This document shows, in pieces, positions 40,888 to 44,592 of a stretch of 64,000 nt of DNA (position 1 is the first letter of the stretch; each line of letters opens with the position of its first letter). A model generated the notes under the pieces. It saw only the letters and a program-made list of their open reading frames with translations. It did no database searches and was not told the origin of the DNA. The position numbers and the translations under genes were made by a program. This DNA is from Acidobacteriota bacterium (lineage in GTDB: Bacteria > Acidobacteriota > Blastocatellia > HR10): contig JAUQQC010000005.1 in NCBI GenBank assembly GCA_030550025.1, positions 138,857 to 202,856 on the forward strand. Direction: 5' to 3'.

Positions 40888-41477
40888 CATCGGCCGTCAT
40901 TCGCGAGATCGTCGGTCGAGGAATTCCGCTGCCGGGCGATGACATAGACACGGATCGGATCATCCCGGGACGCTTCCTGCGCAGCGTGACCTTCGAGGGT
41001 TTGGAGGCACACGTCTTCGAGGACGACCGACAGCAGAATCCGAACCATCCGTTCAATCAGCAGAAGTATCGCGGTGCATCCCTGTTGATTGTGGGGCGCA
41101 ACTTCGGCTGCGGCTCTTCGCGCGAGCATGCCCCGCAAGCCCTCATGCGATGGGGCATTCGCGGCCTCATCGGCGAATCGTTCGCCGAGATCTTCTTCGC
41201 CAATTGCACGGCCATCGGCATCCCGTGCGTGACCGTCTCGGCCGAGGATGCCCGCTGGTTGCAGGAGATCGTCGCCGCGCACCCTGAGCTGGAGCTTCAC
41301 CTCAACTTAGAGACGATGACCGTGCGCGCGGGCGCTCGCACGATCGCCGCGTGGATGCCCGAAGGCGTCCGGCGACAATTCCTCGAAGGAACTTGGAACT
41401 CAACGTTCGTCCTGCTGGAAGCCGGAGAGGCCATCGAACGCACCGCCGCCCGGCTCCCCTATCTGACGGGATTTTGA
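40884..41477 (+). CDS. leuD: 3-isopropylmalate dehydratase small subunit
   Basis: ATG at 40884 ([28 protein letters not shown]...) overlaps the leuC stop (ATGA). 197 aa LeuD. Confidence 0.9.
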
Positions 41478-41738
41478 AACCGCGAGCCGTTCGCCCGTAC
41501 GCGGAGAGGGGATCCGCCTGAAGTGGGAAGGCGACCCCCCTTGATCTGACGATCATAGAGGAACGCCCCCACGATCGAACTCCCTCGGATGAGATCCCCG
41601 AACGCCTCCTCGACGTCCACCGGCGCTGAACTCCCGAGACGATGCCCATTGGCCTCTGCTCGAGGCATCCCACGCCTCGCTGCGTTCGCCCCTCTGGACA
41701 GGGAGGGAGATCGCGAGTTATCATTTCGCCCTTTGACG

Positions 41739-42161
41739 ATGGGCGCTGTGTGTGACACATCGGGCGAAGAGCGCGAACTCCAACAGTTGCGACACCGGTT
41801 GGAGCGAAACACGTGGCTTGTGCTCGCGGCCATGTTGCTCATGGCGGCATGGACGAAGGAACCGAGGGTCGTCCTTGGCGTGGCGCTGGGTGGGGGATTA
41901 GGCTGGGCGAACTACGAGTGGCTTTCGGCGAGCACGCGGACGCTCTTCGCCTCGATGGGAGCATCGGGGAAAGCCTCCCGTCGAGCGATCCTCTGGTTTG
42001 GTCTTCGCGTCCTGGTCATCTGGGGTGCCATTGGGCTCCTCTTCTGGAGCCGGCTGGTTGATGTCCTCGCGTTGGTCGCCGGATTCTGCGCCTTCGTCGT
42101 CGCCGTCATGGTGGAGGTCGGACGCCGCATCGGCCTCCTCATCCTGGGCAGAGGGGAATGA
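41739..42161 (+). CDS. small membrane protein, AtpI/AtpZ-like (by position upstream of atpB)
   Basis: ORF track 41589..42161. ATG at 41739 chosen (MGAVCDT...); 3-4 hydrophobic helices. Assignment rests on position and size only. Confidence 0.4.
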   Translation: MGAVCDTSGEERELQQLRHRLERNTWLVLAAMLLMAAWTKEPRVVLGVALGGGLGWANYEWLSASTRTLFASMGASGKASRRAILWFGLRVLVIWGAIGLLFWSRLVDVLALVAGFCAFVVAVMVEVGRRIGLLILGRGE

Positions 42162-42164
42162 GCG

Positions 42165-43010
42165 ATGTTTCTTCTGGCCGTTCAACCGGAAGCGGGGCCG
42201 GCGCATCATGTTCCGGCCATCGTCGAATGGGTTAACCAGGTTTTCGGTCCCACCGTCTATCGCTGGCAACAGGCGCTCATGCCCAGAGTCTACGGGCTCT
42301 TCGGTGCCGAATGGCATGGCGATCCGAATCTCCCGATTCCGACGCACATCGTCATGTTCTTCATCGCTGTGTTGCTGAGTACCGCGGGCCTTCGACTCTT
42401 GCTGGGGCGGCTCTCATTGGAGAATCCAAGTCCGCGACAACAAATGTTCGAGTTGCTCTTCAGCGGCTTGCGCAACCTGATGCGGGAGAACATCGGCCCG
42501 CACGGATTGAAGTACTTCCCTGTGATCGGAACCTTCGCCGTCGTCATCGGCGTATGCAATCTCATGGGGCTCATCCCGGGGCTCGTCGCGCCGACGGCCA
42601 ATTATAACGTTCCGCTCGCGCTCGCTCTGATGTCGTTCCTCTACTACAACTACATTGGCCTCAAGGAGAACGGGCTGGTCGAATACCTGCGCCATTTTGC
42701 CGGGCCGGTCCTGGCGATCGCGCCTTTGTTCTTCCCGGTCGAGATCGTGAGTAACTCGGCGCGGATCATCTCGCTCTCGATGCGTCTGTTCTGGAACATC
42801 TTCGGGGATGAGACGTTGGCGAGCGTCTTCAGTCAGATCGTCGCTTGGGGCGTGCCCGTGCTGCTGATGCCGCTCGGCCTCTTCGTCGCGCTCATGCAGA
42901 CGTTCATCTTCGTCATGCTCTCGATCATCTACATCGGCGAGGTGACGCATCACGCGGAGGCGAGCACGATCTCGCGCGTCGAACTCCAGGAGGAGGCGGC
43001 CCACGCCTGA
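42165..43010 (+). CDS. atpB: F0F1 ATP synthase subunit a
   Basis: ORF track 281 aa. Polytopic; conserved Arg region ISLSMRLFWNIFGDE matches the subunit a LSLRLFGNMxAGE motif. Confidence 0.85.
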   Translation: MFLLAVQPEAGPAHHVPAIVEWVNQVFGPTVYRWQQALMPRVYGLFGAEWHGDPNLPIPTHIVMFFIAVLLSTAGLRLLLGRLSLENPSPRQQMFELLFSGLRNLMRENIGPHGLKYFPVIGTFAVVIGVCNLMGLIPGLVAPTANYNVPLALALMSFLYYNYIGLKENGLVEYLRHFAGPVLAIAPLFFPVEIVSNSARIISLSMRLFWNIFGDETLASVFSQIVAWGVPVLLMPLGLFVALMQTFIFVMLSIIYIGEVTHHAEASTISRVELQEEAAHA

Positions 43011-43219
43011 CGCGAGGGGAGAGCGAAGGATAGACGCACCGGTGACGATGTCTTTCGCTCTCCGCTTGAGGCGGGGAGGGGGCCGGGGCTCGAAAGCGTT
43101 CGCGAGATTCGATGCCGTCTGGAGCTTTCGTCGGAAGAGGGGGACGAAAGTATACCGGGCATCGAAGGACTCATATGCCCCGCGCGACCCGAAACATCAC
43201 ACACTCCGAAGGAGGAGGC

Positions 43220-43534
43220 ATGAAGACGCACCTGACGAAGTGGACGTGGAGCATCGGTTCGCTTCTGTTCTTCGCCGCTCCGGTATGGGCGCAACAGGGC
43301 GGGGCGGGCGTTACCGATACGACATTCAAATACATTTCGGCTGCCTTCGGCATGGCGATTGCGGCGGCCGCCGCCGCTTACGCGGACTCGCGTGCCATCA
43401 GCGCGGCGTGCGAAGGCGTGGCGCGTAACCCGGGGGCCGGCGGACGCCTCCAAACGCTCATGCTCATTGGCGTCGTATTCATTGAGACGCTCGTGCTCTT
43501 CACGCTCGCTGTCATCTTCCTGAAGGTGGCGTGA
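43220..43534 (+). CDS. atpE: F0F1 ATP synthase subunit c with N-terminal signal-peptide-like extension
   Basis: ATG at 43220 with GGAGGAGG RBS. 104 aa: extension MKTHLTKWTWSIGSLLFFAAPVWAQQ, then c-subunit hairpin with GVARNPGAGGRL loop and carboxylate in LIGVVFIETLVLF. Confidence 0.85.
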   Translation: MKTHLTKWTWSIGSLLFFAAPVWAQQGGAGVTDTTFKYISAAFGMAIAAAAAAYADSRAISAACEGVARNPGAGGRLQTLMLIGVVFIETLVLFTLAVIFLKVA

Positions 43535-43543
43535 GAGAATCGC

Positions 43544-43583
43544 ACCCTCCACGCGGCCCTTCGGATCGCGTGGAGGGTCTTCC
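43544..43583 (+). terminator. GC-rich hairpin downstream of atpE (candidate intrinsic terminator or attenuator)
   Basis: 12-bp perfect inverted repeat ACCCTCCACGCG (43544-43555) / CGCGTGGAGGGT (43567-43578) with an 11-nt loop, 10 nt after the atpE stop. Trailing tract TCTTCC is only weakly U-rich. Confidence 0.45.
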
Positions 43584-43644
43584 ACGGGCGAGTCCGTCGC
43601 CATGACGCGATCTCGCCCGTTTTCGATCCTCGGGAGGAAGGGCG

Positions 43645-44592
43645 ATGAACAGCTTGCCGAAGAGAGATGTCTCACAAGGACGGCGCCTGTTATTGCTTGG
43701 TCTTGGCGCTCTTCTTCTGCTTATGACCATCCGCCTTCCTTCTCCAGCCCTCGACGAAGGATATGCCCACCCGGAGATGCTGGTCGAGACCGAATGGCTC
43801 GCTCAGCACGTGAATGATCCTAACGTTCGCATCGTGGATCTGCGTTCGGCCGAGGCGTATGCTGAAGGGCACATCCCGAATGCCGTCCATCTCGATCAGC
43901 GCGCACTTCGGGATACGGAGGATCGGCTCCTGTACGTCCCGCCCCCAGAGCGATTCGCGATGTTGATGAGTGAACTCGGCATCGGCGATCGCACGCGCGT
44001 CGTCGCGTACGATGACCTCGGAGGACAAGCAGCCGCGCGACTTTGGTTCGTCCTCGATTATTACGGGCATCCGACGTGCAGCCTCTTGAACGGCGGGTGG
44101 CAGAAGTGGGTGAAAGAAGGGCGTCCGCTGAGCCGCGAGATGCCGCGCTTTGAGAAGGCGGAGTTTCACATTCGGATGAATCCGCCAACGATATGCACGG
44201 CGCCGGAGTTGGCGAGCAAGCTTCGCGCAGACGCCGTCGTCATCATTGACGCTCGATCTCCAGAAGAATACCGAGGTGAGCGCGTCCTGGGAGCACGAGG
44301 GGGACACATTCCGGGTGCCCTCAATGTGGAGTGGCGGATGAATTTGACCGAAGGCGATGTGCCGGTCTTCAAATCAGCGGCCGAATTGCGCCGCCTCTAC
44401 GAATCGCTCGGCGTCACTCGGGACAAGGAGATCATCACATACTGCCAGGGCGGAGGGCGCGCCGCCCACACGCTCTTCGTCCTGCGCTTGCTCGGATACA
44501 CGAAGAGCCGCAACTACTACGGATCGTGGCAGGATTGGAGCGCGCGGCCGGAGCTCCCTGTTGAGAAGCCGAAGTCGCCGGAACCTCGGTGA
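43645..44592 (+). CDS. thiosulfate sulfurtransferase (tandem rhodanese domains), secreted
   Basis: ORF track 315 aa. Signal peptide; two rhodanese domains with active-site Cys loop ITYCQGGGRAAH. Confidence 0.8.
   Translation: MNSLPKRDVSQGRRLLLLGLGALLLLMTIRLPSPALDEGYAHPEMLVETEWLAQHVNDPNVRIVDLRSAEAYAEGHIPNAVHLDQRALRDTEDRLLYVPPPERFAMLMSELGIGDRTRVVAYDDLGGQAAARLWFVLDYYGHPTCSLLNGGWQKWVKEGRPLSREMPRFEKAEFHIRMNPPTICTAPELASKLRADAVVIIDARSPEEYRGERVLGARGGHIPGALNVEWRMNLTEGDVPVFKSAAELRRLYESLGVTRDKEIITYCQGGGRAAHTLFVLRLLGYTKSRNYYGSWQDWSARPELPVEKPKSPEPR

Follow-up and report, generated by a model that had tools for sequence, protein, structure and literature searches.

The genes atpI, atpB and atpE in the stretch of acidobacterial DNA analysed here (64 kb of contig JAUQQC010000005.1, hereafter the window) are best explained as one unit that very probably encodes the membrane half of a single, split F1Fo ATP synthase, with a rotor subunit c made as a precursor that carries a signal peptide. 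A stand-alone atpI-atpB-atpE module with a precursor form of c is the normal and already documented state of Acidobacteria. The only new thing at the locus is a structured RNA element in the spacer between atpB and atpE, an undescribed feature of the module.

The first-pass annotation of this locus had described a truncated atp module. That the F0 part is represented only by subunits a and c, together with an AtpI-like protein, was borne out by the Pfam matches on 41739-43534, but the arrangement turned out to be typical of the phylum and not peculiar to this genome. The genes of the families PF03899, PF00119 and PF00137 are adjacent on one strand with no atpF after them, as in the acidobacterial split type. 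The stop codon of atpI and the start codon of atpB are 3 nt apart, and the stator arginine of AtpB stands in its conserved context, SMRLFWNIFGDE. The genes leuC and leuD lie upstream of atpI. Walker-A signatures of the alpha and beta subunits (GDRxTGKT, GGAGVGKT) were absent from all six frames of the 64-kb window, in a search that did not address b, delta, gamma and epsilon individually.

A split of the atp genes between c and b was described for Acidobacteria by Koumandou and Kossida (2014, PMC4154653). In their Table S1, Candidatus Koribacter versatilis is listed as 'sI-0A-0C; 0B'-0B-ID-IA-IG-IB-IE', with sI denoting pfam03899 and 3030 open reading frames (ORFs) between the two parts, Acidobacterium capsulatum as 'I-X-0A-0C; 0B'-0B-ID-IA-IG-IB-IE' with 743 ORFs between them, and Candidatus Solibacter usitatus as 'I-sI-0A-0C; ...'. 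Their c subunits measure 104, 103 and 101 aa, respectively, and the operon of Aquificae is likewise split between c and b (PMC4154653). The window resembles the loci of Koribacter (Acid345_1298-1300), Acidobacterium capsulatum (ACP_0280-0283) and Solibacter, in which an (I-)sI-a-c locus stands apart from b'-b-delta-alpha-gamma-beta-epsilon, AtpI is of the PF03899 type and a c subunit of 101-104 aa begins with an extension of the form M-[KR]-hydrophobic-A-x-A-Q. It differs from them in its class (Blastocatellia), in its flanks (leuCD upstream, rhodanese downstream), in the lack of a PF09527 'ATPase_gene1' gene ahead of the module and in the sequence of c, which shares only 35-44% identity with theirs. 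In Escherichia coli, the operon atpIBEFHAGDC opens with the same atpI-atpB-atpE order but continues directly into atpF.

The relatives of the module were collected by a scan of species-representative genomes with AtpB, which gave seven loci, and by a metagenome scan with an AtpB alignment, which gave 11 loci, mostly of one clade; wider diversity came from single look-ups. The metagenome contig Ga0209289_100016 is 100% identical to the window, an uncultured Blastocatellia metagenome-assembled genome (MAG) is 94% identical by the AtpB scan, and the hot-spring MAGs HR10 and HR08 are about 90% identical. Identity of AtpB ranges from 67 to 100% across 18 related loci, and that of the AtpI-like protein from 46 to 81% in L001-L007. 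The full order leuCD-atpI-atpB-atpE-rhodanese-ketoacyl synthase is kept in five close relatives. On the further contigs, which were those of c-subunit homologues down to 50% identity, atpB and atpE were adjacent at every locus examined, and atpI lay 5' of atpB wherever the upstream flank was covered, sometimes with a PF09527 gene ahead of it. Where the downstream flank of distant loci was covered, atpE was followed by an MFS transporter, an oxidoreductase, opposite-strand nuo genes, Band_7 or NTP_transf_3, and never by atpF; with the published split between c and b, this upholds the earlier statement that the module ends with atpE. In L001-L007, the 10 kb on either side of the module contained no F1 Walker motifs. 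The stand-alone module was present in all related assemblies examined, from Blastocatellia and from more distant relatives, and the same junctions recurred in independent assemblies of different projects (JGI, NCBI, ENA MAGs, Logan assemblies). A misassembled junction before atpF, which had been named as a finding that would overturn the first reading, is therefore excluded.

Subunit c itself is readily recognised. The PF00137 domain (48 bits against a cut-off of 24) covers residues 39-101, with about 38 residues ahead of it, and the protein has ARNP at residues 68-71 and the ion-binding Glu89 within FIETLVLF. The solved c-ring chains (69-82 aa, all two-helix), with those of Bacillus pseudofirmus, Spirulina and PS3 as the best PDB matches, align only to residues 34/38-100 of the precursor and leave residues 1-33 uncovered. 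This N-terminal extension is predicted to be a Sec-type signal peptide of 24 residues. It carries the basic residues K2 and K7 and no acidic residue at its start, residues 8-19 are hydrophobic, and the predicted cleavage region has P21 at -4, V22 at -3 and A24 at -1. By sequence rules, a basic n-region, an h-region and an A-x-A-type site are in this way placed before a two-helix protein. After the site, the segment QQGGAGVTDTTFK leads to the first transmembrane helix (TM1). An extension of about 30 residues resembling a signal peptide had been noted before; its signal-peptide character agreed with the sequence criteria, but the predicted length is 24 residues followed by a polar tail of 13.

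The homologues of c agree with this prediction. Among the 120 best (47-99% identity, about 100-115 aa), at least 55 residues precede the RNP loop in 118, and a [TVAL]-x-A site falls within the first 45 residues in 114, with Q as the next residue in 105. Mean column entropy reached 1.77 bits in the hydrophobic core of the signal peptide, compared with 0.70 in TM1, 0.68 in TM2 and 0.33 in the loop, whereas the cleavage motif A-P-x-x-A-Q is conserved (A20, P21, A24 and Q25 at about 80-90% each). A variable h-region next to a conserved cleavage motif is what one expects of a targeting signal that is later removed. Aligned with published sequences, the c subunit of the window shares its extension with those of Koribacter, Acidobacterium, Solibacter, Geothrix and two Aquificae; the c subunits of E. 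coli and Dictyoglomus lack it. The c subunits of the Aquificae Sulfurihydrogenibium and Hydrogenobaculum align with an extension of the same kind as in the window, although they share 28-32% identity with it and possess an extra C-terminal tail (FTGIF..KAGF) that the window protein lacks. An article by Zhang, Marcia, Langer, Peng and Michel (FEBS J, 2013, 280:3425) reportedly deals, by its title, with the signal peptide at the N-terminus of subunit c in Aquifex aeolicus. As far as that title tells, a c-subunit signal peptide is thus already known in kind and has been studied experimentally, in Aquifex only; the cleavable type named there is the one predicted here. The first-pass remark that N-terminally extended c subunits had been reported is right, to judge from the same title, which appears in a reference list.

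These observations suggest a route for the rotor subunit. The 104-residue precursor would enter the membrane N-in through its 24-residue Sec-type signal peptide, which would bring the 13-residue polar tail of mature c across to the periplasmic face. A cut by signal peptidase I after VWA would leave an ordinary two-helix c of 80 residues, with its RNP loop and Glu65, to join the rotor ring, whose assembly AtpI may help. Since entry N-in and cleavage in the periplasm would leave the mature N-terminus outside, the route matches the known orientation of c subunits, the mature N-terminus of which is on the periplasmic side. Dependence of the precursor on Sec is likewise a prediction. The c subunit of E. 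coli, in contrast, has 79 aa and no signal peptide, and is inserted by YidC. As a tentative generalisation, an abundant phylum of soils and hot springs outside Aquifex probably inserts its rotor subunit by a signal-peptide route and not by the YidC-only route of E. coli.

Further features of c bear on the ring and its ion. Helix 1 (43340-43400, precursor residues 41-60) is alanine-rich, AFGMAIAAAAAAYA, compared with the usual GxGxGxG, and the top PDB match is the c13 ring of the alkaliphilic Bacillus pseudofirmus with its AxAxAxA motif; the alanine-rich helix may point to a large c-ring. A second carboxylate, Asp at precursor residue 56 (mature 32), lies next to Glu65 and is Asp or Gln in relatives. 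Coupling to Na+ was considered, as this Asp takes the position of Gln32 of I. tartaricus and Glu-Thr is found at 65-66, but Leu and Phe replace Thr67 and Tyr70 of the Na+ rings. Proton-coupled rings of mycobacteria likewise contain an Asp32/Glu65 pair. No case for Na+ coupling can be made.

Three other explanations of the module and its c subunit were weighed. If the N-terminal segment stayed uncleaved, it would form a third transmembrane helix and give a three-helix c in an unusual rotor ring. Some 15 hydrophobic residues after the Lys residues could indeed act as a signal anchor, and cleavage is a deduction. However, the segment is short and ends in Pro at -4 and small residues at -3 and -1, with Q next, with a site of this type in 114/120 homologues; its entropy of 1.77 bits contrasts with about 0.7 in TM1 and TM2, beside a conserved cleavage motif; and the title of Zhang et al. 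names the Aquifex extension a signal peptide. Judging from the two-helix solved c-rings, an additional helix in each protomer would also occupy the ring surface that faces subunit a. A three-helix c is therefore improbable. Still less credit is due to a mis-assigned start of atpE, either at Met45 (MAIAAAAAA), which is close to where the Pfam domain begins, or at ATG 43112, which is in frame with atpE without an intervening stop and would give an ORF of 140 aa. The strong Shine-Dalgarno sequence (SD) GAAGGAGGAGG precedes ATG 43220, a purine-rich equivalent is found ahead of the aligned start codon in all relatives, and Met45 has no SD ahead of it. Moreover, residues 1-44 remain coding with signal-peptide properties in relatives down to 47% identity, and their length differences keep the frame. 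The upstream ATG 43112 lacks conservation (in L006 its frame meets a stop, and in L019 a different frame is used across these nucleotides), and this stretch changes by compensatory base pairs instead of codon-like substitution. The internal start suggested as a possible refutation is thus unsupported, and the start coordinate first given for atpE, 43221, was off by one and is corrected to 43220. The downstream ATG 43171 within the RNA element, where GAAGGACUCAUAUG resembles an SD and start, was rejected, as relatives carry ACG, AGG or ACU there.

It is about as implausible that the module is an assembly artefact, or a spare or decaying partial copy in a genome whose complete atp operon, such as one of the N-ATPase type, lies in another place. 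The contig is of metagenomic origin, and only this part of the genome is in view. The identical junctions across the JGI, NCBI, ENA MAG and Logan assemblies nevertheless speak against an artefact, and the intact state of all three genes, with 46-100% protein identity, against decay. In complete acidobacterial genomes, moreover, the a and c genes of the module are the only ones listed (PMC4154653). The N-ATPase locus is described as beta-epsilon-I-R-a-c-b-alpha-gamma, with atpR and no delta (Dibrova et al. 2010, as summarised in PMC4154653), and such loci run atpD-C-Q-R-B-E-F-A-G with beta and epsilon first (PMC4154653), an order that is not seen here. With leuCD upstream, a rhodanese gene downstream and no beta, epsilon, alpha or gamma flanking the module, an N-ATPase identity was rejected. 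The favoured account remains that of one enzyme in two parts: 41695-43578 would be one atpI-atpB-atpE transcription unit of a thermophilic, Blastocatellia-type acidobacterium, and the genes for b', b, delta, alpha, gamma, beta and epsilon would form another locus far away from it, the arrangement known from cultured Acidobacteria.

Table. Positions in the window of the genes, peptide segments and nucleic-acid features of the atp locus
Feature	Coordinates	Strand	Remarks
Promoter-like site TGGACA-N18-TATCAT	41695..41724	+	15 nt upstream of atpI start; 10/12 sigma-70 positions
atpI-like gene (AtpI/UncI family; 'sI' in Koumandou and Kossida nomenclature)	41739..42161	+	140 aa; PF03899 ATP-synt_I, E 3e-8, residues 21-116
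atpB, F0 subunit a	42165..43010	+	281 aa; PF00119 ATP-synt_A, E 2.6e-44
Post-atpB stem-loop	43011..43070	+	core arms 43016-43030/43051-43063; inverted repeat I2; in minimum-free-energy fold of spacer
Structured RNA element, irregular hairpin of 81 nt	43103..43183	+	covariance model R1, 101.4 bits in window
Shine-Dalgarno of atpE, GAAGGAGGAGG	43208..43218	+	read from sequence; ends 1 nt before ATG 43220
atpE, subunit c	43220..43534	+	104 aa; PF00137 ATP-synt_C, E 1.5e-12
Predicted signal peptide of c precursor, MKTHLTKWTWSIGSLLFFAAPVWA, 24 codons	43220..43291	+	predicted signal peptidase I site between VWA and QQ
Predicted mature c subunit, 80 residues and stop codon	43292..43534	+	RNP loop at precursor residues 69-71; ion-binding Glu at precursor 89 (mature 65)
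Terminator-type hairpin	43544..43578	+	arms 43544-43555/43567-43578, 12 nt each, 100% complementary; 11-nt loop; no U-tract
Two-domain rhodanese gene, next after module	43645..44592	+	PF00581, E 3.8e-44

The spacer between atpB and atpE is long for an a/c junction, with 209 nt in the window and 201-402 nt in the clade, compared with a short spacer of about 50 nt in E. coli. It holds the RNA element, a block conserved above much of the coding sequence. Its helix P1 (UUCGAUGCC/GGCAUCGAA) is followed by a bulge and a three-pair helix UGG/CCG, an invariant internal loop places A opposite AUA, and helix P2 (GCUUUCGUC/GACGAAAGU) is closed by the loop GGAAGAGGGG; a conserved 3' tail, GGACUCAUA, completes the element. 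The pattern TGGAGC...ATACCNGG occurs once per locus, on the + strand only and always between atpB and atpE. In a structure proposed by hand from 20 distinct sequences, with a P2 loop of the GAAGAGGG type, 93.7% of the cells were paired compared with 41-48% for slid partners, 9/21 pairs were compensatory, and none of 500 shuffles reached the observed covariation score. The model-based alignment of 21 distinct sequences gave nearly the same result (93.5% of cells paired compared with 42-48% in slid controls, compensatory changes at 10 of the 21 pairs). The covariance model R1 found exactly one match per locus in the 21 distinct sequences, at 51-102 bits, on the + strand and between atpB and atpE, and its best match elsewhere in 456 kb scored 17.5 bits. 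Locus L033, which was outside the seed of R1, scored 80 bits. The element occupies the same place in L001-L016, L019-L022 and L029-L036.

Upstream of the element, directly after atpB, lies a second stem-loop with 17 predicted pairs, 7 of which keep pairing through two-sided changes in an eight-sequence alignment. It may be a site of intercistronic processing or attenuation. In two relatives, gene callers placed a 64-aa ORF without a Pfam match in the spacer, overlapping the RNA element (L020 9780-9974; L021 4824-5018), which is probably a false gene call.

The element from the window, L020 and L022 matched no family of Rfam 15 at E ≤ 10, as only chance-level matches appeared and none was shared between loci, and a literature search for an acidobacterial atpE RNA motif found none. 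The ATPC motif, presumably Rfam entry RF01067, is like the RNA element a structured RNA at the junction of the a and c genes. It forms a three-stem junction and belongs to Prochlorococcus and Synechococcus, whereas the acidobacterial element is a single unbranched hairpin (R1 contains 0 branch points). An ATPC identity was rejected on account of this unbranched hairpin and of the lack of any Rfam match at E ≤ 10 over 43090-43225 or 42950-43700. The ATPC motif was described from cyanobacteria, between the a and c genes of the ATP synthase operon (Weinberg et al. 2007, PMC1950547), and the describing paper does not give its function (PMC1950547).

The two ends of the putative transcription unit are also marked. 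The promoter-like site is the only sigma-70-like match in 41300-43900, and its block is unchanged in five relatives; CTGGACA and TATCATTTCGCCCTTTG are invariant in L001, L002, L003 and L005, in which the rest of the leuD-atpI spacer is unalignable. The atpI ATG at 41739 has no SD, and the sequence suggests that 41695-41724 is a promoter giving a very short or absent atpI leader. Transcription would probably run from TGGACA-N18-TATCAT to the GC-rich hairpin, which lies 10 nt downstream of the stop codon of atpE. This hairpin, a perfect 12-bp stem at 43544-43578, and the rhodanese gene that comes next at 43645-44592 were both correctly noted in the first-pass annotation. The 60 nt after the atpE stop fold at -31.7 kcal/mol (z = -3.4), and none of 200 shuffles was as stable. 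As a terminator, the hairpin has the stem with its 12 perfect pairs but not the run of U that a canonical intrinsic terminator has, since UCUUCC follows the stem; because of the missing U-tract it was not called by a consensus terminator scan.

When the 60-120 nt downstream of the atpE stop were folded for 13 lineages, each of the 13 gave a strong stem-loop, with 9 to 44 pairs; the sequences are unrelated to each other, and the z-scores range from -2.5 to -16 in 12 lineages, with -1.0 in the exception, L002. The low-GC loci L020, L023 and L027 carry a U7-8 tail after the stem and thereby a canonical intrinsic terminator; the U-run is missing in the window and its close relatives. The position of the hairpin is conserved and its sequence is not, which suggests that the transcription unit has its 3' end there, with the hairpin as terminator, as 3' stabiliser or as both, and terminator activity of the window hairpin is deduced on this basis. 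Among the post-atpE hairpins, two perfect ones of 44 bp (L025 6333-6430, with repeated TTTGCGA units) and 34 bp (L022 10332-10409) resemble repetitive extragenic elements and not plain terminators.

The position of the RNA element bears on its possible function. In the window it ends 36 nt before the atpE start. The distance from its end to the start codon is 33-36 nt in 15 of the 21 distinct sequences (measured for twelve, with L004, L010 and L014 placed by alignment with close relatives) and 69-97 nt in the other six. The tail is able to pair with the SD-AUG region in several lineages, and a local anti-SD hairpin covers the SD in L020 and L033. No covariation was found for either kind of pairing, in the case of tail-to-start pairing (CUCAU with AUGAG at the start codon) at the tabulated flanking positions, and the pairing of the CUCAU tail with the AUGAG start region is speculation. 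A cell requires about ten times as much subunit c as subunit a, and E. coli meets this need by a very efficient translation start at atpE. The element probably acts on the stability or translation of the atpE mRNA, as far as its structure and position suggest. The reading we tentatively prefer is that atpE lies in a stable mRNA segment with efficient translation, bounded by the post-atpB stem-loop, the RNA element and the 3' hairpin; such a segment would let the cell make many c per a.

Instead of a passive element for stability or translation, 43103-43183 could be a DNA operator or promoter for atpE, or an RNA that senses a ligand or a protein; this appears unlikely, if worth keeping in mind. 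The invariant unpaired UGGAGC and GUAUACC, the loop GAAGAGGG and the tail CUCAUA resemble typical binding sites. At the DNA level, however, the many G-U pairs would correspond to A-C mismatches in the opposite strand (in 13-18 sequences at three positions) and R1 matches the + strand only; frequent G-U pairs and strand-specific matches point to RNA rather than to a DNA palindrome. Recognition of TGGAGC...GTATACC as a sigma-54 or sigma-70 promoter was rejected in view of the spacing of 26-28 nt and of intervening changes that preserve base pairs. In favour of these alternatives also speak the end of the element 33-36 nt before the start in 15/21 sequences, the capacity of the tail to pair with the SD-AUG region in several of them, and the control of ATP synthase genes by riboswitches in some bacteria (Na+-I class, PMC9337991). 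Against a sensor stand the absence of a multi-stem junction or pseudoknot, the lack of a match to any known riboswitch model and the tail-to-start pairing without covariation, and a sensing riboswitch or protein-binding leader is a doubtful identification. CsrA-type GGA loops were rejected as well, the tail GGA being missing in L019, L030 and L033. A bolder proposal, to which we give only a small chance, is that 43103-43183 and the post-atpB stem-loop form an undescribed class of cis-regulatory RNA that is specific to Blastocatellia-like Acidobacteria and actively tunes c synthesis. It might, at similarly long odds, open or close the atpE ribosome-binding site on sensing an ion, a nucleotide or some protein partner. 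If true, such a cis-regulatory RNA would join ATPC as the second structured RNA known from the a/c junction in operons for ATP synthase.

Several points weigh against the account of a split synthase with a processed c subunit and a bracketed atpE segment. Cleavage of the signal peptide is deduced from sequence rules and the Aquifex precedent, and the view of a single enzyme split in two draws on genomes published for other classes of the phylum. Support for the RNA element comes from 21 partly closely related sequences, with an effective number of 2.6 in R1, and R1 found no match in the more distant acidobacterial L023-L028, whose spacers measure 89-183 nt. The role of the RNA element is a guess, and the window hairpin, being without a U-tract, may act in a non-canonical way in the termination or stabilisation of transcripts.

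With a module of a and c only and a precursor c as the rule across Acidobacteria, annotators should neither flag such loci as truncated nor trim the start of the c subunit in this phylum. The spacer RNA, described by a covariance model with 21 examples, provides a concrete new object with a candidate role in the a:c subunit ratio.

Minor observations concern the neighbourhood. The N-terminus of the rhodanese, MNSLPKRDVSQGRRLLLLGLGALLLL, resembles a twin-arginine (Tat) export signal, and the protein is probably a periplasmic sulfurtransferase, to judge from this sequence; in the more distant L033, a rhodanese gene likewise follows atpE. Across the whole window, Rfam at gathering thresholds returned only a cobalamin riboswitch (RF00174, 17778-18000, - strand, 100.4 bits). 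In distant acidobacterial lineages, an atpZ-I-B-E module adjoins genes for complex I (nuo) or an Mrp-type antiporter (L023 1-4436 and 6851-12312; L025 1-3619; L027 6432-12309), and long Proton_antipo_M genes flank both sides of these modules.

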